Source: Candidatus Omnitrophota bacterium
Lineage (GTDB): Bacteria > Omnitrophota > Gorgyraeia > Gygaellales > Profunditerraquicolaceae
Direction of reading: 5' to 3'
NCBI GenBank assembly: GCA_903852325.1
Contig: CAINQO010000035.1
Span: forward strand, 34,117 to 98,116
Length of the DNA stretch: 64,000 bases
Shown here: positions 14,598 to 53,719 of the stretch, one piece after another
Numbering within the stretch: position 1 is the stretch's first letter
Layout of the letters: every line of letters starts with the position of its first letter
Program-made: the position numbers and the translations under genes
The notes under the pieces: model-generated
What the model saw: the letters and a program-made list of their open reading frames with translations, nothing else
Told to the model about the DNA's origin: nothing
The model's database searches: none

Positions 14598-14628
14598 AAG
14601 GAAGGGCGGATTGAATCCCGCCCTTCCT
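14598..14628 (+). promoter_or_regulatory. Perfect 11-bp hairpin AAGGAAGGGCGG-ATTGAAT-CCGCCCTTCCT (SD-mimic/anti-SD), a short-loop variant of the repeated leader element
   Basis: Lies 6 nt after the lpxL-fusion stop and 32 nt before the ATG at 14661, whose own SD is AAGGAAGGGTTGGG. The motif AAGGAAGGGCGG(G)AT(T)GAA recurs at 53550. Confidence 0.5.
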
Positions 14629-14660
14629 CAGCGATTTAAGTTAGCAAAGGAAGGGTTGGG

Positions 14661-16754
14661 ATGAAGATTTTACAAATTTTGCCGGAACTTAATGTCGGAG
14701 GGGTAGAGACCGGGACGGTGGACCTTTCCCGTCATCTGGTGCGCCTGGGGCATAAATCGGTGGTGGTTTCCGCCGGCGGAGCGCTGGTCAAAGAACTGGA
14801 GGAGGCGGGGGCTAAACACTATCAACTGCCGGTAAATAAAAAATCCATCATCTCCATGATCAAGCTGGTTCCGGAGTTAGCCGAAATTATCAAACGGGAA
14901 GGGATCGAGATCGTACATGCCCGCTCAAGGGCGCCGGCCTGGATCGCTTATTTTGCCTGCCGAAGGACCCAGGCGGTATTCGTTACCACTTGCCACGGTT
15001 ATTACCAGAAACATCTTTTTAGCGCGGTAATGGGCTGGGGCAAAAAAGTGATCGTTTTAAGCAACGTGATCGCCCGGCACATGATCGAGGATTTTGCCGT
15101 TCCCCATGAGCGGATCAAGCTGGTGCCGCGCAGCGTGGATCTGGAGAAATTTAAATACCGGGACCCTAAAAACAAAAGGAAAGAAGATTTTAATGTCGGT
15201 ATCATCGGCCGGATCACCCCGCTAAAAGGGCATTTGCATTTTATCAAAGCCATGGCACGCATTTCCCGCTCCGTCCCGCGCCTGAAGATCTGGATCGTCG
15301 GCGATGCTCCGGCTTCCAAGGAAGCTTATAAAGAAGAACTGCAAATTTTAGTGCGCCGCCTGGGTTTATGGCATTGCACGGAATTTCTGGGCACGCAGCG
15401 GGATATTCCGGGAATATTGGAGAACCTGGATCTGGTGGTTTTAGCCACGACTACTCAGGAGGCCTTCGGCAGGGTGGTTGTAGAGGCGCAGGCCTGCGGG
15501 GTACCGGTGGTGGCGACCAGGGTCGGAGGGGTGATCGATATTATCGAGGACGGCAAGAACGGGCTCCTGGTCCCTCCGGCGGATTCCAAAAGCATGTCGG
15601 AGGCGGTGATGCGTATTTTTAAGGACGCGGAATTCGCCCGCATCCTGGCGGAAAATGCCTACGCTAAGGTCAAAGAAAAATATAATGTGGAATTGATGGT
15701 CAAAAATACTTTAGAGGTTTACCGGGAGGCGCTGAATAATTTTAAGATCCTGGTGATCAAGCTCAGTTCTTTAGGGGACGTGATCCTTTCTACGGCGGCC
15801 TTAAGGGCGATCCGGGAAAAATTTCCCCAAAGTAAATACAAGATAAGTTTTCTGGTCGGGGAAGAATCCAAGGACCTGCTTTTGCGCTGCCCGTATATCG
15901 ACGAACTTCTGGTTTGCGACTTAAAAAATAAGGACCGCGGCCCCTTCGGTTTGCTGAGGATGGGTCAGCTTTTACGGAAGAAAAATTTCGACTCGGTGAT
16001 CGATCTGCAAAATAGCCGTTCCAGCCACCTGCTGGCTTATCTGAGCGGTTGCGTCCACCGCTACGGATATGACAATAAAAAGTTTTCCTTTTTGCTCAAC
16101 TACCGGATCCAGGATCAAAAAACCCCGCTGGACCCGGTAACCCACCAGTTCAGGATCCTTAAGCTGCTGGGGATCGACCTGTTGAATAATGCCCTTGAGC
16201 TTTGGCCTTCCGCGGAAGACCGGGAGAAGGTGGAGGAACTTTTTAATTCCCAATGGTTGAGCCAGGTGCAGAAAGTGGTGGGGATCAATATCAGCGCTTC
16301 CTCCAGATGGGAGACAAAACTCTGGCCGCTGGAATACGTGATCACCCTGTGTGAAGAACTGGAAGCCAGGGATATCCGGGTGGTCATTACCGGTAAGCAA
16401 GAGGATCAGCCGCGCGCCAACATGCTCGTCGATTCGCTTAAGAACACCAAGGTGATCAATGCCTGCGGCAAGACCAATATCAACGAATTGGCGGTGTTGA
16501 TCAAAAAATGCAATGTGTTCATCTCCGCCGATTCTTCTCCTTTGCATATCGCTTCCGCGGTGGGCACTCCTTTTGTCGCTTTGTTCGGCCCGACGGATCC
16601 TTTGCGGCACCTTCCCCCCGGGGCTAATTACGCGGTGATCGATAAGAAATTGAATTGCAGCCCTTGTTATAAAAATAGATGCCGCAGTAAGCGCTGCATG
16701 ATCGAGATCGATCCGGCGCAGGTTTTTGAAGCGGTAATGAAGTTATTGAAATAA
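14661..16754 (+). CDS. Bifunctional LPS-core glycosyltransferase: GT4 (RfaG-like) N-domain fused to GT9 (heptosyltransferase-like) C-domain
   Basis: N-terminal half has the GT4 E-x7-E motif region EAFGRVVVEAQACGVPVVATRVGGVIDIIEDGKNGLLVPP. C-terminal half has the GT9 pattern ILVIKLSSLGDVILSTAALRAIREKFP...ISADSSPLHIASAVGTPFVALFGPTDP. 697 aa. Confidence 0.8.
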   Translation: MKILQILPELNVGGVETGTVDLSRHLVRLGHKSVVVSAGGALVKELEEAGAKHYQLPVNKKSIISMIKLVPELAEIIKREGIEIVHARSRAPAWIAYFACRRTQAVFVTTCHGYYQKHLFSAVMGWGKKVIVLSNVIARHMIEDFAVPHERIKLVPRSVDLEKFKYRDPKNKRKEDFNVGIIGRITPLKGHLHFIKAMARISRSVPRLKIWIVGDAPASKEAYKEELQILVRRLGLWHCTEFLGTQRDIPGILENLDLVVLATTTQEAFGRVVVEAQACGVPVVATRVGGVIDIIEDGKNGLLVPPADSKSMSEAVMRIFKDAEFARILAENAYAKVKEKYNVELMVKNTLEVYREALNNFKILVIKLSSLGDVILSTAALRAIREKFPQSKYKISFLVGEESKDLLLRCPYIDELLVCDLKNKDRGPFGLLRMGQLLRKKNFDSVIDLQNSRSSHLLAYLSGCVHRYGYDNKKFSFLLNYRIQDQKTPLDPVTHQFRILKLLGIDLLNNALELWPSAEDREKVEELFNSQWLSQVQKVVGINISASSRWETKLWPLEYVITLCEELEARDIRVVITGKQEDQPRANMLVDSLKNTKVINACGKTNINELAVLIKKCNVFISADSSPLHIASAVGTPFVALFGPTDPLRHLPPGANYAVIDKKLNCSPCYKNRCRSKRCMIEIDPAQVFEAVMKLLK

Positions 16755-16819
16755 GCAATATACCTGGCGCTTAGTGGTATTGCGCCAGTACGCGCCACGT
16801 GGCGCGAGGGGCGGGATGA

Positions 16820-16894
16820 CCCCGCACCATCTTCTAATTCACGCTTTAAGTCCTAAGGTTTAATAACAATTAACTATAAGGATGGTGCGGGGTG
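16820..16894 (+). promoter_or_regulatory. Leader element copy A (anti-SD arm CCCCGCACCATCTTCT paired with SD/start arm AAGGATGGTGCGGGGTG) upstream of the GT4 gene
   Basis: The 5' arm at 16820..16835 is complementary to 16878..16894, which holds the RBS and the GTG start at 16892. An AT insertion is matched in both arms. The CGCGCCACGTGGCGCG palindrome lies upstream. Confidence 0.6.
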
Positions 16895-21315: not shown

Positions 21316-22245
21316 ATGATCAACTTAAAGAAGGTTAAAAGATATTCGCTTAAAGCCCGTTTAAGCAAGGTAAATAAGGGGGATTTTGCCCTTAAACCGG
21401 CTAAAGGCAGGAGTTTTTCCGTTTTTTTTGACTCCTTACCTAATATTTTAAAAGCCAAAGATTTACGCTCGGTTTCTGCCGATATTATCGCGGCGCGCCG
21501 GAAAAATAAAGGGGTGATTTTAATGGCCGGGGCCCACGTGATCAAGTGCGGGCTTAATCCGGTTTTGATCGAGTTGTTGGAAAAAAAAGTGATTACCTGT
21601 ATCTGCCTTAACGGGGCCGGATTGATCCACGATTTTGAGATCGCCTACCAGGGGAAGACTTCGGAAGATGTGGCCGCCAACCTCAAAGACGGGAAATTCG
21701 GGATGGGGATCGAGACCGCGGATTTTATCAACGCCGCGGTCAAAGAAGGGACTGAGGCGGGCTTTGGATTAGGTTATGCCTTAGCCAATAAAATGGCCGG
21801 GGCAGCTTTACCCAATAAAGATCTAAGCCTGATTTATAATGCCTATAAGCGTAAAATCCCGGTTTGTGTTTTTGCGGCGATCGGTACGGATATAATCCAT
21901 CAGCACCCTTCTTTCGACGCTGCGGCAACCGCCGTGGGCTCATTGCGGGATTTCCATATCCTGGTGGAGAGGATCCGCTCCTTGAATCAGGGGGGAGTGG
22001 TTTTAAATTTCGGCTCCGCGGTGCTTTTGCCTGAAGTATTTTTAAAGGCTTTGAACCTTGCCCGCAACCTGGGCAGCAAAGTGAAAGATTTTACTTCCGC
22101 TAATTTCGATATGATTTACCAGTACCGCGCGGCACAGAATGTAGTGAGCCGTCCCACCGCTTCCGGGGGTAAAGGCTATTATATTATCGGTCACCATGAG
22201 ATCATGCTGCCGCTTTTAGCCCAAAGTATATTGGAAAAAATCTGA
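21316..22245 (+). CDS. Deoxyhypusine synthase (DHS)-like NAD-binding family protein, function unknown, embedded in the LPS/heptose locus
   Basis: Three blocks follow the DHS pattern. AGAHVIKCGLNPVLIELLEKKVITCICLNGAGLIHDFE matches SN.ISSG.RE.I..L.....VDV.VTTAGGVEED. IPVCVFAAIGTDIIHQH matches IPVF.PA.TDGS.GD. LNQGGVVLNFGS matches GGGVVKHH. Start moved from the track's 21277 to the internal ATG at 21316 because 21277 overlaps the putative -35 box. Confidence 0.5.
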   Translation: MINLKKVKRYSLKARLSKVNKGDFALKPAKGRSFSVFFDSLPNILKAKDLRSVSADIIAARRKNKGVILMAGAHVIKCGLNPVLIELLEKKVITCICLNGAGLIHDFEIAYQGKTSEDVAANLKDGKFGMGIETADFINAAVKEGTEAGFGLGYALANKMAGAALPNKDLSLIYNAYKRKIPVCVFAAIGTDIIHQHPSFDAAATAVGSLRDFHILVERIRSLNQGGVVLNFGSAVLLPEVFLKALNLARNLGSKVKDFTSANFDMIYQYRAAQNVVSRPTASGGKGYYIIGHHEIMLPLLAQSILEKI

Positions 22246-22246
22246 C

Positions 22247-22317
22247 CCCGCACCTTCTTCGTATTCGATCTGAAGGTCAGGGGTAAAAAATAGTTAATAA
22301 TAGGAAGGTGCGGGGTG
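22247..22317 (+). promoter_or_regulatory. Leader element copy B (CCCCGCACCTTCTTC ... AGGAAGGTGCGGGGTG) upstream of hldE
   Basis: The 5' arm starts 2 nt after the upstream stop. An internal GAAGGTCAGGGG can alternatively pair with the anti-SD. The 3' arm supplies the SD and GTG start (22315). Confidence 0.6.
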
Positions 22318-24881: not shown

Positions 24882-24899
24882 ACTTTAATAAGGTGCGGG

Positions 24900-25868
24900 A
24901 TGAGTATTGATTTGATCAAACGGGCAAAAGAAGTTTTGGAAATCGAAGCGCAGGCAGTGCGCCGGTTAAAGGGGTGCCTGGATAAAGGTTTTATTAAAGC
25001 GGTTGAGCTGATCCTGAAGAGCAAGGGCAGGGTAGTGGTTAGCGGAATGGGCAAGACCGGAATTATCGCCCAAAAATTTTCCGCGACTCTTGCTTCGACC
25101 GGGACCCCCAGTTTATTCCTGCATACCGCCGAAGCTATTCACGGGGATTTAGGCAAGGTTACCGCGGATGATGTGGTGATCATCCTTTCTAACAGCGGTT
25201 CGACCGAGGAGATGAAACAGCTTTTGCCGATCCTCAAAAAGATCGGCGCTCCGATCATTTCTTTGACCGGCAACACCAAATCCATTCTGGCCAAATACAG
25301 CGATGTGGTCCTGGATGTCTCCGTGAAAAAAGAGGCCTGTCCGTTAGGTTTGGCCCCCACGGCTTCCACTACCGCGGCTTTGGCGATGGCCGATGCCCTG
25401 GCGGTCTGCCTGCTGGAACGTAAGGGGTTTAAAGAAAAGGATTTTGCATTTTTCCATCCTGGGGGCACTTTAGGCAAGCGCCTGCTTTTGAGCGTCGCGG
25501 ATATCATGCGCCAGGGGCAGTCTAATGCCATTGTCCGCGAGGATAAATTGGTGGCGGAAGTTTTGTTGGCGATTACCCGGGCCCGGGCCGGCAGCGCTAT
25601 TGTGGTGGATAAGCAGGGAAAACTGAAGGGGATATTCACCGACGGAGACCTGCGCCGGCATTTAGCCACCGACAAGTATTTACCGCAGCGGCCGATCAAA
25701 GAAGTAATGACCAAAAACCCCACGGTAGTGAGCAAAGATATGCTGGCGGCAGAGGCGATGCGGATATTACAGGCCAGGAAGATCGATGAAGTCCCGGTGG
25801 TGGATAAATTCAGGCGCCCGGTGGGCTTATTGGATGTCCAGGACCTGCTTAAAGCCGGATTAATTTAA
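24900..25868 (+). CDS. kdsD: Arabinose-5-phosphate isomerase (SIS plus tandem CBS)
   Basis: SIS motif VVVSGMGKTGIIAQKFSATLASTGTPS plus C-terminal CBS pair. 322 aa. SD AAGGTGCGGG precedes the ATG. Confidence 0.9.
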   Translation: MSIDLIKRAKEVLEIEAQAVRRLKGCLDKGFIKAVELILKSKGRVVVSGMGKTGIIAQKFSATLASTGTPSLFLHTAEAIHGDLGKVTADDVVIILSNSGSTEEMKQLLPILKKIGAPIISLTGNTKSILAKYSDVVLDVSVKKEACPLGLAPTASTTAALAMADALAVCLLERKGFKEKDFAFFHPGGTLGKRLLLSVADIMRQGQSNAIVREDKLVAEVLLAITRARAGSAIVVDKQGKLKGIFTDGDLRRHLATDKYLPQRPIKEVMTKNPTVVSKDMLAAEAMRILQARKIDEVPVVDKFRRPVGLLDVQDLLKAGLI

Positions 25869-26517: not shown

Positions 26518-27403
26518 AGATTTAGTTTTAACTTTTGTATTTTTATTCTTTGCCTGCGGTTCCTTGTTTGCGGCGGTAGAAGTCAAGGATCCCGGTGAAT
26601 CTGCCGGACAGGTGGGGGATTTTTCCCTTGCTGGTTTCGGGGACAAAGGAAAGAAAGCCTGGGACCTGGCGGGTAAATCCGCCAATATTTTCACCGATGT
26701 GGTTAAATTGCAGAAAGTCGTCGGTAATGATTACGCCCTCACCGATACGATCAACCTTACCGCCGATAACGGGGACTTTAACAAGAAAAGCGGCCTGGTG
26801 CATTTGCAGGACAATGTCGTCATCACTACCGCCAGCGGCGCCAAGATGACTACCGATACCCTGGATTGGGACAGGAAGCAGCAGATCGTCAAGACCTTGG
26901 ACAGGGTCAATCTGGCCAAGCAGGATATGAACCTTTCCGGCCAAGGCGCCCAGGGAAAGACGGAATTAAAGCAAATCAAGCTGGAAAAAGATGTGCGCCT
27001 GGATATTCAGACCCTGGATAAGCAGGTGAACAAAAAAGAAAAGATCGTCATTACCTGCGACGGGCCGCTGGACGTCGATTATGAAAAAAATATTGCCATA
27101 TTCAATAATAATGTTAAAGTAGAAAAGCCGGATATGACCATTTACAGCGATAAAATGGAAGTTTTTTTTACCCCTAAAGAGCAGCCGGCGCAGCCTAAAA
27201 CGCCTGCTCCCGGGATGGCGGCGCTCTCCAGTTCCGTGGATCGGATCGTCGCTTCGGGGAATGTGCGCATCGTGCGGGGGGAGAATACTTCTTTCAGCCA
27301 GCAGGCAATTTATACCGCCGCGGATAAAAAAATCACTTTGACCGGAAAGCCGCAAATTATCATTTACCAGACGGAGAACGCGAATGCAGCTTTTGGAAAC
27401 TAA
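26507..27403 (+). CDS. LptC/LptA-family (OstA-like beta-jellyroll) LPS transport protein, N-terminally anchored
   Basis: Signal/anchor [17 protein letters not shown], then two OstA-like repeat regions ([24 protein letters not shown] and [37 protein letters not shown]). 298 aa, so possibly a combined LptC plus LptA function. Confidence 0.6.
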
Positions 27404-28106
27404 GGGCCTGGCTAAATCCTATGACGGTCGCTGGGTGGTTAAGGGCGTGGATATCACGGTCAAGCGCGGGGAGATCGTCGGGCTTTTAGGCCCCAACGGA
27501 GCCGGCAAGACTACTACTTTTTATATGATCGTCGGGATCGTCCCCCCCAACAAGGGCACGATCGTTTTTGATAACCATGAAATCACCCGGATGGCGATCC
27601 ACGAGCGGGCGCGTTTCGGGATCGGCTATCTTGCCCAGGAACCCTCGATATTCCGGAAACTGACCGTGGAAGAAAATATCAACGCGATCCTGGAGACTTT
27701 GCCTTTGAGCCGCGCGCAGAGAAAAAACCGGCTGGCGTTTTTGCTGGAGGAGTTGAATATCGCGCACCTGGCAAAGCATAAAGCCTACACTTTAAGCGGC
27801 GGAGAGAGAAGGCGCCTGGAGATCACCCGGGCGCTGGTGACCAATCCTTCTTTTATCCTGCTGGATGAACCTTTCAGCGGGATCGACCCGATCGTCGTCA
27901 ATGAAGCGCAGGAGATCATTAAGGAATTAAAGGCCAAAGGCCTGGGTATTCTTTTGACCGACCATAATGTGCGGGAGACCCTGGCGATCACCGACCGGGC
28001 GTATTTAATTTCCGAAGGGGCGATCCTTATTTCCGGATCCGCGGAGGAGCTGATTAATCACCCTCAGGCCCGCCAGGTTTATTTAGGTGAGAAGTTTAGG
28101 ATGTAA
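27384..28106 (+). CDS. lptB: LPS export ABC transporter ATP-binding protein
   Basis: Walker [12 protein letters not shown], signature [11 protein letters not shown], Walker B ILLDEP. 240 aa. Confidence 0.9.
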
Positions 28107-28248
28107 CCCCGCACCTTCTTCTGTATTCGGAAGAAAAACGGATTGATTAAAGGCGCGGGACAATAATAACCATGGTCATTTCTTTAAACATCAAGGTTCA
28201 AAGCTTAGATGCAGGGAATGATATAATTAAGAAAGAAGGTGCGGGGTG
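28107..28248 (+). promoter_or_regulatory. Leader element copy C (CCCCGCACCTTCTTC ... AAGAAGGTGCGGGGTG) upstream of tig, with a 25-codon uORF
   Basis: The 5' arm begins at the first nt after the lptB TAA. The uORF at 28173..28250 ends with TGA overlapping the tig GTG (GGTGA). Confidence 0.6.
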
Positions 28249-29133
28249 AAAACCGAAGTTAAGAAATTAGACGGAACTAAACGTGAAATTAATGTCGCCG
28301 TGACCGGCGACTTGGTCAAAAATAAATTTGAAGAAGTTTTCGCACAGGTCGCCAAAGAAGCCAAGGTCCCGGGTTTTCGCCCGGGAAAAGCGCCCCGGGA
28401 TCTTCTGGAAAAGCATTACGGTTCCAGCGTCCATGAGCAGGTGTTAAAGGAGCTGGTCCCGGATGTGTATAACCAGGCGGTCGCGGCGGAAAAACTCGAT
28501 GTCATTGAGCTGCCCCAGATCACCGATGTGCAGCTGGATCGGGCCAGCCTTTCTTTTAAAGCGGTCGTGGAGGTCAGCCCGGAAATTACGCTGAAGAATT
28601 ATAAAAACCAGGTAATTAATTATAAGCTGCCGGTTGTTTCCGCGGATGAAGTGAAACGCCAGATCGACTCGGTCAAGGAATCGCGTAAGGCCGAAAACCT
28701 GGATGATAAATTCGCCCGCTCCCTGGGTTATCCTGATTTAGGGGAATTGGAAAAAGCGGTGGAAAGACAGATCTTTCTTACCAAGGAGAATCAGGAACGC
28801 CAGCGGATTGAAAATGAATTAATCGAAAATATTACCAAAGGGGTGGAATTTAAGCTGCCGCAAGGATTGGTGGACCGGCAGGTTCAGGATATGCTGCGGC
28901 AGACCAAGATCGATTTGGCGATGAAAGGGCTGCCCCGGGAGAAGATCGACGCGCAGGATAAATTGCTTTTAGAGGGGATCGAACCGGAAGCAAAAAAGCA
29001 GGTCAAGATTTACCTGATCCTGGCGCAGATCGCGAAAAAAGAGAATATCGCCATCGACGACCATATGCCGCGCAAGGTGATGGAGTTTCTGCTGGGTGAA
29101 GCAGAGTGGAAGGCTGCACAAGAGAATAAATAG
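28246..29133 (+). CDS. tig: Trigger factor lacking the central FKBP/PPIase domain
   Basis: N-terminal ribosome-binding domain (MKTEVKKLDGTKREINVAV..., GFRPGKAP signature) joined directly to the C-terminal chaperone arm. 295 aa versus about 430 typical. GTG start. Confidence 0.8.
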   Translation: MKTEVKKLDGTKREINVAVTGDLVKNKFEEVFAQVAKEAKVPGFRPGKAPRDLLEKHYGSSVHEQVLKELVPDVYNQAVAAEKLDVIELPQITDVQLDRASLSFKAVVEVSPEITLKNYKNQVINYKLPVVSADEVKRQIDSVKESRKAENLDDKFARSLGYPDLGELEKAVERQIFLTKENQERQRIENELIENITKGVEFKLPQGLVDRQVQDMLRQTKIDLAMKGLPREKIDAQDKLLLEGIEPEAKKQVKIYLILAQIAKKENIAIDDHMPRKVMEFLLGEAEWKAAQENK

Positions 29134-29152
29134 CGGTATTCATGTTGATTAG

Positions 29153-29260
29153 CTCCGCGCCTAAGCCTTGGATGTTACGCTTAGCATATATTCGAATATT
29201 GTAACGCGCGGAGTAAATTAAAAATTACCACTTATTATAAATAATTTTAAATTTAAGGAG
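29153..29260 (+). promoter_or_regulatory. Conserved structured element upstream of clpP (copy 1 of 2; second copy upstream of queH)
   Basis: 8-bp stem CTCCGCGC/GCGCGGAG enclosing CTAAGCCT..GTTACG..ATATATTCGAATATTGTAAC, then GTAAATTAAAAATTACCACTTATTATAAATAATTTT and the clpP RBS. Confidence 0.6.
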
Positions 29261-31091: not shown

Positions 31092-31219
31092 AAATCCTAG
31101 GCACTAAATCCTAAACTCTAAACAAACTCAAAAAATTTAAACTCAAAACCCGAAACATGGGTTTGGAGTTTTGGATTTTGGATTTGTTTAGGATTTAGAG
31201 TTTAGTGTTTAGAGTTTAG
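31092..31219. repeat. Long imperfect hairpin built from inverted heptamer tandem repeats (CTAAAYN x3 ... NGTTTAG x4) between serC and serA
   Basis: The left arm CTAAATC CTAAACT CTAAACA AACTCAAAA...AAACCC and loop GAAACAT precede the right arm GGGTTTGGAGTTTTGGATTTTGGATTTGTTTAG GATTTAG AGTTTAG TGTTTAG AGTTTAG. The arms are A/C-rich versus G/T-rich. Confidence 0.5.
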
Positions 31220-31240
31220 AATAATAATGAGGGGTGAGAG

Positions 31241-35852: not shown

Positions 35853-37198
<1,346 letters not shown>

Positions 37199-42492: not shown

Positions 42493-43674
42493 ATGAATCC
42501 TGCTCCAAAAAATATTGCGGTTTTAGGTTCCAGCGGCTCTATCGGTCAAAGTACTTTGGAAGTGGTCAGGGGCCTGCCGCGTGAATTTAAAATTGTCGCC
42601 CTAAGCGTTAATTCCGATATTGTCCGGTTAGAACAACAGATCAGGGAATTTAGGCCGAAATTAGTCTGTGTCGGGGATCCCCGGCAAGCGGTAAAATTAA
42701 GCGCCCGGACCGGTCCAGGGGTAAAAGTTCTTTGCGGAAAATCCGGCCTGGAAGAATTGGCGCAGCATAAAGATATTCAACAGGTGATGGTGGCGATTAC
42801 CGGCGCAAATGCTTTAGCTCCGTTAATCAGCGCGATCAAAAGCGGCAAAGAAGTGGCTTTGGCTAACAAAGAAGCGCTGGTGATGGCCGGCTCGCTGGTG
42901 ATGCGTTTAGCCAGCCGGCATAAAGTTTTGATCCGTCCGGTAGATAGCGAACAGTCGGCGATCTGGCAGAGCCTGGGCGATAGCGGGGCGGAAAATATCA
43001 GGAAGATATACCTGACCGCTTCCGGCGGGCCGCTTCGGACCTGGCCGGCAAGTAAGTTTAAGCGGGTGTCGGTGGAAGAAGTATTGCGCCATCCGCGTTG
43101 GAAAATGGGCAGGAAGATCACGGTAGACTCGGCAACCTTGATGAATAAAGGGCTGGAGCTGCTGGAAGCGATGTTCCTGTTCGGCCTGGGGGAGGATAAA
43201 ATAAAAGTATTGGTCCACCCGGAAGCGTTGATCCATTCCATGGTCGAATTTAAGGATGGGGTGACCATGGCGCAGCTTTCCGTCACGGATATGCGCGTGC
43301 CTATCCAGTACGCCTTGACCTATCCCCGGCGCCTGCCGAATACGATCAGGGGAATAGATTTTTACCGTTTGCATAAACTGCATTTTGCCAAACCTGATCT
43401 ACAAAAGTTTCCCTGCCTGGCGCTGGCTTACCAGGCTGCCCGGCAGTTAGGCACCGTGCCGGCGGTTTTAAATGCCGCCAATGAAGCCTGCGTAGAGATG
43501 TTCCTTGAGCGCAAGATCGGTTTCTTAAGTATCGCCGGGATCGTGGAGAAAGTGATGCGCCGCCATACCAGGATTTCTTCTCCGGGATTGCGGGAAATAA
43601 TGGATGCCGATAGCTGGGCCAGGGAGGAAGTTTTGCGCATCGCCGCCGGCTCAAAAACTATGAGGGTTTTATAA
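42493..43674 (+). CDS. dxr: 1-deoxy-D-xylulose 5-phosphate reductoisomerase
   Basis: IAVLGSSGSIGQSTLEV, LANKEALV, HPRWKMG. 393 aa. Confidence 0.95.
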   Translation: MNPAPKNIAVLGSSGSIGQSTLEVVRGLPREFKIVALSVNSDIVRLEQQIREFRPKLVCVGDPRQAVKLSARTGPGVKVLCGKSGLEELAQHKDIQQVMVAITGANALAPLISAIKSGKEVALANKEALVMAGSLVMRLASRHKVLIRPVDSEQSAIWQSLGDSGAENIRKIYLTASGGPLRTWPASKFKRVSVEEVLRHPRWKMGRKITVDSATLMNKGLELLEAMFLFGLGEDKIKVLVHPEALIHSMVEFKDGVTMAQLSVTDMRVPIQYALTYPRRLPNTIRGIDFYRLHKLHFAKPDLQKFPCLALAYQAARQLGTVPAVLNAANEACVEMFLERKIGFLSIAGIVEKVMRRHTRISSPGLREIMDADSWAREEVLRIAAGSKTMRVL

Positions 43675-53550: not shown

Positions 53551-53719
53551 AGGAAGGGCGGGATGAACCCTGCATTTTCTTGTTATTCAATATTAAAGTC
53601 TTAGGAATTTGATGATTAAACAGAAGGAAGGTGCGGGGGTGAATCCCGCTCCTTCTAATTGTTCAATGCTAAAACCCATACGTTTTAAAGAATTCAATAA
53701 GAAAGAAGGAGCGGGATGA
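53550..53719 (+). promoter_or_regulatory. Tandem (degenerate plus intact) leader element copies E1/E2 upstream of scpA, each with a uORF
   Basis: Pseudo-start AAGGAAGGGCGGGATGAA (53550..53567), then uORF1 MNPAFSCYSILKS (53563..53604). Second pseudo-start AGAAGGAAGGTGCGGGGGTGAA, anti-SD TCCCGCTCCTTCT (53644..53656) and uORF2 MNPAPSNCSMLKPIRFKEFNKKEGAG (53639..53719). Real SD AGAAGGAGCGGGA (53704..53716), exactly complementary to the anti-SD with two compensatory changes relative to the consensus. Confidence 0.6.

Follow-up and report, generated by a model that had tools for sequence, protein, structure and literature searches.

The 64,000-nucleotide stretch of a Candidatus Omnitrophota contig analysed here (the window) carries lptB and tig in succession, and the junction between them (window 28104-28254) holds copy C of a short palindromic repeat that recurs at gene starts in the window and in related genomes. 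The lptB open reading frame (ORF; 27384-28106) encodes 240 amino acids with an ABC_tran domain (Pfam) and ends with TAA at 28104-28106. The tig ORF starts with GTG at 28246-28248, at a residue that matches the start of its orthologs (MKTEVKKL), and its 295-residue product shows Trigger_N and Trigger_C (Pfam) and no PPIase domain; this central domain is absent from the whole trigger factor (28246-29133), and the metagenomic orthologs align over the same ~290 residues. The lptB TAA is directly followed by CCCCGCACCTTCTT (28107-28120), which matches without error the reverse complement of AAGAAGGTGCGGGG (28233-28246), a part of the segment running from the Shine-Dalgarno (SD) sequence to the tig start, and the resulting stem reaches 15 bp when the A28106-T28247 pair is added. 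A first-pass annotation of this DNA had rightly placed an anti-SD arm directly behind the lptB stop and a long spacer between the arms, although the spacer measures 112 nt and not 110. It had also translated exactly the 25-codon upstream open reading frame (uORF; peptide MVISLNIKVQSLDAGNDIIKKEGAG*) whose TGA (28247-28249) overlaps the tig GTG, placing it at 28173-28250 instead of 28172-28249, and had recognized a local hairpin between TTCTTC (28116-28121) and GAAGAA (28130-28135), which folds alone to -8.7 kcal/mol and whose loop has 8 nt rather than the proposed 9.

The copy C leader is real and exceeds chance: the window contains 11 occurrences of the arm motif where 0.98 are expected, a count reached in none of 100 shuffles, and the predicted fold of the region has -50 kcal/mol (z = -4.3) and shows the long-range stem in both the minimum free energy and the centroid structures. 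A covariance model of the family, R1, which was built from 74 copies, splits the junction into 28108-28159, with an intact 5' arm and a decayed 3' arm (unit C1), and 28161-28254, a full-length match with a decayed 5' arm (unit C2); copy C can be read as two decayed units, a lineage-specific decayed example of the family. In silico, the 5' arm can also pair locally with 28150-28159 in a decoy state of -20.6 kcal/mol, which is ~11 kcal/mol less stable than the long-range fold, and an inner arm comparable to this decoy (AGAAGGYGTRGGG) is found in many copies elsewhere. The decoy pairing would form first during transcription and would leave the tig SD single-stranded. Promoter and terminator scans show no sigma-70 promoter or terminator consensus at copy C, and no tRNA or tmRNA lies near it. 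A perfect extended -10 sequence, TGATATAAT (28219-28227), was noted by eye 6 nt upstream of the 3' arm; the promoter scan did not call it since it has no -35, and a transcript from there would be without the 5' arm. It is probably due to chance, as it is not conserved in the syntenic comparison locus L111.

The extent of the family was assessed by a pattern scan of one genome per species with several arm positions left free, which gave at least 117 stretches. The low-GC half of the listed stretches comprises at least 69 copies from ~27 Candidatus Omnitrophota metagenome-assembled genomes (MAGs), with a few labelled Planctomycetia or Phycisphaerae, and the high-GC half (Streptomyces and similar) consists of chance matches; viral contigs gave just two matches, both high-GC and due to chance. 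Model R1 recovers 81 distinct elements in 478 kb, and the window alone contains at least eight units (A, B, C1, C2, D, E1, E2 and a decayed variant at 14607-14669). In the typical unit of ~75 nt (range 57-118 nt), the arms CCCCGCACCTTCT (5') and AGAAGGTGCGGGG (3') enclose ~45 nt of AT-rich spacer, and the coding content is limited to a uORF of at most 25-27 codons. The 5' flank of the listed copies is nearly always ATGAA(C/T), and a conserved AAGAAAG precedes the 3' arm, together with which it makes a near-perfect extended SD. In all 69 listed low-GC copies, the end of the unit coincides with the RTG that opens a long ORF, and the N-termini of these ORFs match known proteins, the genes concerned being alaS, rpmJ (in five genomes), rpsF, rplR, rpmC, radA, tsaB, tsaE, aroK, hldE, purA, glycosyltransferases and others. 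The element is described neither in the literature found by its sequence or topic nor in the main Omnitrophota genomics paper. Minimal arm palindromes that are not fused to a start codon are present at L100 2871-2913 (ATCCCGCACCTTAT joined to ATAAGGTGCGGGAT without a spacer) and at L011 6284-6340, a 57-nt hairpin located ~20 nt upstream of rplP; such palindromes could represent founders of the family or residues of it.

The units of the window fold into rods with energies between -28 and -33 kcal/mol (z between -3.1 and -6.3), in which the SD is buried along with the first base of the start codon. Over the 74 copies of the model, 98.3% of the arm cells are paired and 25 cells are changed on both sides, a level attained by none of 500 shuffles. 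Since the search pattern fixed many arm positions, the informative evidence for pairing is represented by the unconstrained closing pair (C-G 42, T-A 15, T-G 5, C-A 7) and by the copies with compensated arm variants, namely L032 (CCCAGCCCCTCC/GGAGGGGCTGGG), L034 (TCACGC/GCGTGA), unit 1 of L031 and window copies A, E2 and 14607. The repeat copies and this pairing confirm the earlier view that unrelated genes share the leader and that its 5' arm is an anti-SD. Predicted pairing of the SD stays at 85% or more across 10-80 C, with a mean unpaired probability of 0.07-0.22 for the SD and start. Other genes of the window carry canonical GGAGG-type SDs. Given the usual 16S tail, CACCUCCUUUCU, 11 of the 12 positions of AGAAAGAAGGUG would be paired with it, and the tail would be closely mimicked by the 5' arm.

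Comparison of empty and filled sites shows how the units are placed. At aroK, the window has the empty site ATGAATATTT (junction ..gcgATGAATATTTATC) and L031 has ATGAA-unit-TGAA-unit-TGAATATTT, continuing with TGAATATTTATC after the second unit, in a context common to both, in which a SpoVG-family gene (assigned by Pfam in the window) lies upstream and a hairpin resembling a terminator occupies the same position. At hldE, a plain ATGA stop/start overlap in L077 (..AATATATGAAG) corresponds to TGA-unit-TGAAG in the window, L046 and L111, and kdsD is found in three states, empty in L046, with a full element in L111 and with a solo 3' arm in the window. As for tig, the upstream regions of ~77 metagenomic orthologs (58-86% identity) were compared. 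The adjacency of lptB (..KFRM*) and tig is conserved, and in ~74 orthologs an element-free tig starts with ATG behind AAGAAAGGG; the element is present in only three, L137, L191 and L196, which have the only GTG starts among these orthologs. The L137 site reads AAGAAAGGGAAAAATGAA-canonical unit-TGAAGACT, and the units of L191 and L196 have variant arms. Indeed, the covariance model finds only 3 elements in 354 kb of tig-ortholog loci versus the 8 units of the 64-kb window. The ATGTAA in front of copy C, once thought to mimic the pseudo-start of other copies, turns out to be the conserved end of LptB, whose ATG-TAA/TGA recurs in dozens of element-free orthologs (the LptB orthologs end in ..KFRM* with TAA, TGA or TAG).

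The flanks of the units behave as direct repeats, since their 5' and 3' sequences covary (TGAG-TGAG three times, TGGA-TGGA twice) and TGA(A) stands on both sides of the filled aroK, hldE and tig (L137) sites, the length of the duplication being ambiguous between 3 and 4 nt. The nearest-neighbour spacer belongs to the same MAG for 21 of 59 copies versus 2.2 expected, and one long-spacer subtype is common to aroK and kdsD of the same MAG. GTG is the start codon of 47 of the 69 listed element-bearing genes (ATG in the other 22), and within the window of 4/5 element-bearing genes versus 4/~54 other genes. The empty and filled sites, the covarying flanks and the excess of GTG thus indicate that the last base of the unit and the duplicated TG create a new start codon, the ancestral start being the ATGAA found 5' of the unit. 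Likewise, gain and loss among related genomes, TGA(A) flanks and likeness of spacers within genomes argue for an inserted repeat family and not for a conserved regulon; judged by these comparisons of sequence, the tig leader is an inserted repeat rather than a conserved regulatory signal of tig. A 30-nt palindrome of the form 3' arm-TGAA-5' arm was considered as the mobile unit and is ruled out by the same comparisons, in which the inserted unit is 5' arm-spacer-3' arm.

The junction between lptB and tig also hosts other insertions. In L111 (6313-7192), an Xre-antitoxin/RES-toxin pair is inserted between the two genes and is followed by a scrambled array of element fragments that includes a tandem duplication of the 3' arm. 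Many tig orthologs free of the element (L120, L130, L135, L150, L160 and others) carry other, unrelated palindromic repeats in the lptB-tig spacer (~170 nt upstream of tig), for example GTGAGTGAGG..CATAACTTATGGAGCG..GACATAAGTTAT..GAACTCATACCCGCG. The junction looks like a hotspot for several repeat families.

The stop of the upstream gene lies no more than 2 nt from the 5' arm or within the arm in 28 of 65 copies (17 being the TGA inside ATGAAC, 6 abutting the arm with one base between and 5 inside the arm), and 5-28 nt upstream in 25 more, so that a terminating ribosome would occupy or melt the arm. A start codon is kept at position -6 in 55 of the 69 listed copies, with 30 in frame with the TGA that overlaps the real start (p = 0.001). 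The uORF is open in 19 of the 69, against 5.2 +/- 2.1 expected with shuffled spacers (3.6-fold), and its ending on the start codon is a recurrent feature of the family, as in copies D and E2; as the copies are related by descent, these probabilities are indicative only. A conserved peptide-coding leader was considered as the primary constraint and rejected, because the MNPAPS codons are invariant at the nucleotide level and at least a third of the copies are out of frame or interrupted. In copy C, the lptB TAA abuts the stem, the SD and start are paired and the proximal stop falls within the footprint of a ribosome, which is the geometry of a coupling hairpin.

With a repeat family sited at gene starts, polymorphic insertion, paired arms and adjacent upstream stops as observations, we propose with moderate confidence that 28104-28250 represents two insertions, lineage-specific and partly decayed, of a ~75-nt Omnitrophota palindromic repeat that enforces translational coupling. 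According to this model, the insertion site is the TGA(A) within an ATGA(A), either a start codon or a stop/start junction; TGA(A) stands on both sides of the inserted unit, whose last base (G or A) joins the duplicated TG as the new start codon of the gene. The 5' arm, being the exact complement of the SD-to-start segment, would fold the transcript into a stable hairpin that hides both, and the downstream gene would then be translated mainly when a ribosome arriving from upstream melts the 5' arm. Such a ribosome could either terminate on the abutting upstream stop or translate the uORF from the ancestral ATG, using the native SD as in L137; opening of the arm would free the new SD, or the ribosome could reinitiate at GUGA/AUGA by termination-reinitiation. 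For copy C, the opener would be the ribosome that finishes lptB, and the decoy arm would offer an alternative route to a free SD. The coordinates of copy C and of the other copies of the window are collected in Table 1.

Table 1. Features of copy C and further units of the repeat family in the 64-kb window
Feature	Position	Strand	Observation
Decayed variant copy before 697-aa glycosyltransferase (ATG 14661)	14607..14669	+	26.6 bits; L010 ortholog has a canonical copy
Copy A, before GT4 glycosyltransferase (GTG 16892)	16819..16893	+	57.9 bits; -29.7 kcal/mol; compensatory arm variant CACCATC/GATGGTG
Copy B, before hldE-like PfkB kinase (GTG 22315)	22245..22316	+	65.6 bits; 5' arm follows TGA of upstream ORF
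Solo 3' arm AATAAGGTGCGGG + ATG, SD and start of kdsD	24887..24902	+	motif scan
lptB stop TAA	28104..28106	+	abuts 5' arm; candidate 5' copy of TGA(A) direct repeat
5' arm (anti-SD) CCCCGCACCTTCTTC of unit C1	28107..28121	+	exact complement of 28233-28246
Local hairpin TTCTTC-N8-GAAGAA	28116..28135	+	sequence, own fold
Decayed 3' arm of unit C1, AAGGCGCGGG	28150..28159	+	decoy partner of 5' arm, one mismatch; covariance model aligns CCCGCACCUU/AAGGCGCGGG
Unit C2, decayed 5' arm, spacer and 3' arm intact	28161..28254	+	R1 model 21.4 bits, positions 1-91 of 91
25-codon uORF ending ..KKEGAG*	28172..28249	+	frame and ending as in uORFs of copies D, E2
3' arm: extended SD AGAAAGAAGGTG, CGGG spacer, tig GTG start	28230..28248	+	last ~40 nt identical in syntenic locus L111
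Copy D, before purA (GTG 35930), open uORF MNPAPS..KKEGAG*	35857..35931	+	80.1 bits; -31.7 kcal/mol, z = -5.6
Copy E1, first of tandem pair; 5' arm decayed to U-G wobbles	53567..53640	+	30.4 bits
Copy E2, before scpA (ATG 53716)	53643..53717	+	73.9 bits; -32.7 kcal/mol, z = -6.3; compensatory arm variant CGCTCC/GGAGCG

Several points weigh against this proposal. We infer the coupling mechanism and the spread of the element, the coupling from geometry alone, and Tig is normally abundant, a poor fit with strict dependence on the translation of lptB; the decoy arm or the possible extended -10 may bypass the block at tig. The orientation of the spacer relative to the gene is uniform in nearly all copies, which a cut-and-paste element with symmetric ends would not predict and which would have to come from strand-specific insertion or from selection. 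Over the 81 copies the arms hardly vary in sequence, an invariance that is partly imposed by the search pattern and the model and that could mean recognition by a trans-acting factor rather than pairing alone. Moreover, single mismatches in the arms are about equally U-G (18) and C-A (14), and selection at the RNA level is therefore not separable from selection on the palindrome at the DNA level. No transposase-bearing element with these ends was seen among the solo arms, no systematic search for one having been made, and the comparison sequences are all MAGs or metagenome contigs.

Alternatively, the repeat would be purely selfish or neutral palindromic DNA, tolerated because it rebuilds an SD and a start, and its hairpin would have no regulatory effect, expression being kept normal by ribosome standby, helicases, the decoy arm or internal promoters. 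The spectrum of insertion and decay, with solo 3' arms, the scrambled arrays of L111 and the decayed copy C, fits such DNA, as do the lineage-specific expansion and the minimal palindromes away from starts (L100:2871-2913, L011:6284-6340). However, paired elements far outnumber solo arms, and both the ancestral ATG kept in 55/69 copies and the 3.6-fold excess of open uORFs would decay were the RNA context irrelevant. In addition, a stem of -30 kcal/mol over the SD and start is expected to block the binding of free 30S subunits. All in all, we regard a repeat devoid of regulatory effect as rather unlikely.

The first-pass annotation had instead taken the sharing of the leader by unrelated genes to imply a global signal, such as temperature, growth rate or translation status. 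In its developed form, this would be a conserved cis-regulatory leader, that is a riboregulator or thermosensor of a global regulon answering temperature, growth rate or a trans-acting RNA or protein. Identical arms before many housekeeping genes, a near-invariant arm over 81 copies that could be read by a trans-factor, arms kept at the orthologous hldE and GT4 sites of three genomes where the spacers have diverged, and the two-state architecture provided by the inner decoy arm all speak for it. Nevertheless, the unit is gained and lost between related genomes (aroK, hldE, kdsD and tig, with 3/~77 tig orthologs, and with 8 units in the window compared with just 3 elements across 354 kb of related loci), the filled sites have TGA(A) direct repeats, and the spacers are homogenised and alike within genomes, which speaks against a global signal. 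Temperature in particular is disfavoured, as the stems are perfect, G+C-rich and closed from 10 to 80 C in silico, and all that remains of translation status is a narrower meaning, a coupling to translation from upstream. Rfam gave no match at gathering score over the window and chance-level matches only at E up to 10. A regulon leader thus appears improbable.

A hairpin for intercistronic RNA processing or stability, cut by RNase III or stabilising the 3' end of the upstream cistron, is very unlikely, even though Neisseria Correia elements are reported as RNase III-cut or stabilising hairpins and the unit is likewise a rod-like ~75-nt hairpin between cistrons that begins right after the upstream stop. 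Indeed, the perfect stem has just 14-15 bp, and processing would leave unexplained why the 3' arm carries an SD and a start codon. There is also no U-tract after the 3' arm, which is followed by GUGAAAAC, and the terminator scan finds nothing at the element, so that it does not qualify as an intrinsic terminator or attenuator. Finally, programmed translational bypass, in which ribosomes that started at the ancestral ATGAA would skip the palindrome and land on the matching RTGAA, has precedents in T4 gene 60 and the yeast mitochondrial 'byps' elements and would suit the ATGAA...RTGAA direct repeats on either side of a G+C-rich palindrome inserted where coding regions begin, but is scarcely credible for a unit that has its own strong SD at optimal spacing, whose uORF reads into the arm with no stop at the take-off site, and which in copies B and C follows an upstream stop without a start codon there and so has no take-off ATG.

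Further repeats of the window deserve mention beside the copies listed in Table 1. The start of dxr (42493-42520), ATGAATCCTGCTCCAAAA (MNPAPKN..), closely resembles the 5' end of the element, ATGAATCCCGCTCCTTCT (MNPAPS); this may reflect the fusion of a 5' arm to the coding sequence on deletion of the remaining unit, or coincidence. A separate palindrome, GCTCCGCGC ... GCGCGGAGT, lies in the spacer between tig and clpP (29152-29215), where it scores weakly with the element model (12.4 bits); it could be a terminator or belong to another type of hairpin repeat. A block of short repeats in inverted and tandem order (AAATCCTAAACTCTAAAC / GTTTAGGATTTAGAGTTTAG) fills 31092-31222, between an aminotransferase gene and the next ORF, and forms the longest inverted repeat of the window.

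Extended from copy C to the whole family, the coupling proposal would describe an undescribed class of mobile palindromic elements that homes to start codons or ATGA stop/start junctions and neutralises its own insertion by bringing a replacement SD as well as the opening base of a new start codon. The terminal inverted repeat of the element would act as an anti-SD/SD switch, thus rewiring dozens of housekeeping genes per genome (ribosomal proteins, tRNA synthetases, chaperones) into obligatory coupling with the gene upstream. We advance this extension tentatively and give it somewhat less than an even chance. If it holds, a repeat element writes part of the translation-initiation landscape of an uncultivated phylum, in that it turns ATG starts into GTG, swaps native SDs, makes uORFs and may impose coupling on essential genes, and it would represent a natural self-compensating insertion, on which a portable coupling cassette could be modelled. 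The family bears on start-codon calls and 'conserved leader' predictions in Omnitrophota MAGs and on comparative RNA-motif screens, with the caution that a motif common to unrelated genes is not by itself a regulon.

Among known systems, the Omnitrophota unit is a repeat of the kind represented by miniature inverted-repeat transposable elements (MITEs) or by the REP2 repeats of Neisseria. As in MITEs, it is short (57-118 nt, where MITEs are < ~300 bp) and without transposase coding, has terminal inverted repeats (arms of 14-15 bp, 98.3% paired over 74 copies) and a target-site duplication, TGA(A), by comparison of empty and filled sites, and is dispersed in copies that are alike within genomes. 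Similarly, the Correia elements of Neisseria and the enterobacterial repetitive intergenic consensus (ERIC) sequences are short, non-coding and co-transcribed as hairpins, with terminal inverted repeats, short flanking direct repeats, many dispersed, tandem and decayed copies and lineage-specific expansion. In contrast with them, the Omnitrophota units sit exactly on start codons or ATGA junctions in one orientation relative to the gene, and the two halves of their inverted repeat are the SD-to-start segment and its complement. Rickettsia palindromic elements are selfish and persist within genes since their insertion is compatible with function, being translated in frame; the Omnitrophota units replace the initiation region instead and, as their uORF is closed by the TGA, never become part of the protein. 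RNA thermometers (ROSE, fourU) likewise mask the SD by pairing in a 5' leader, but with weak imperfect stems, whereas the Omnitrophota stems have 14-15 perfect G+C-rich pairs and do not melt in silico. Two further resemblances were dropped: the terminal repeat of IS5, which begins with GGAAGGTGCG, resembles the 3' arm, but its polarity is inside-out relative to the unit 5' arm-spacer-3' arm given by the empty and filled sites, and the core motifs of integron attC sites (GTTRRRY / RYYYAAC) are absent by eye. The proposed mechanism is closest to the SD-sequestering coupling hairpins of MS2 and of operons, in which an anti-SD pairs with a distal SD and start and the stem lies within the footprint of the terminating ribosome (standby is discussed in PMC5934652), although the Omnitrophota device, known here from sequence alone, is a mobile repeated cassette at dozens of unrelated junctions rather than a structure evolved at a single locus. 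The nearest published precedent found is that of Neisseria REP2 and the Borrelia inverted repeat (IR), dispersed repeats immediately upstream of genes that give a promoter, a ribosome-binding site (RBS) and an ATG fused to ORFs (Delihas 2011, PMC3184786). REP2 is described as carrying a promoter and two internal stem-loops and as being without terminal inverted repeats (Delihas 2011, PMC3184786); the Omnitrophota unit differs from that description in having ends that pair and mask the SD, TGA(A) flanks and, in copy C, no promoter consensus, and shares with both repeats the supply of an RBS and initiation codon to the gene downstream, as in 69/69 of the listed ORFs.

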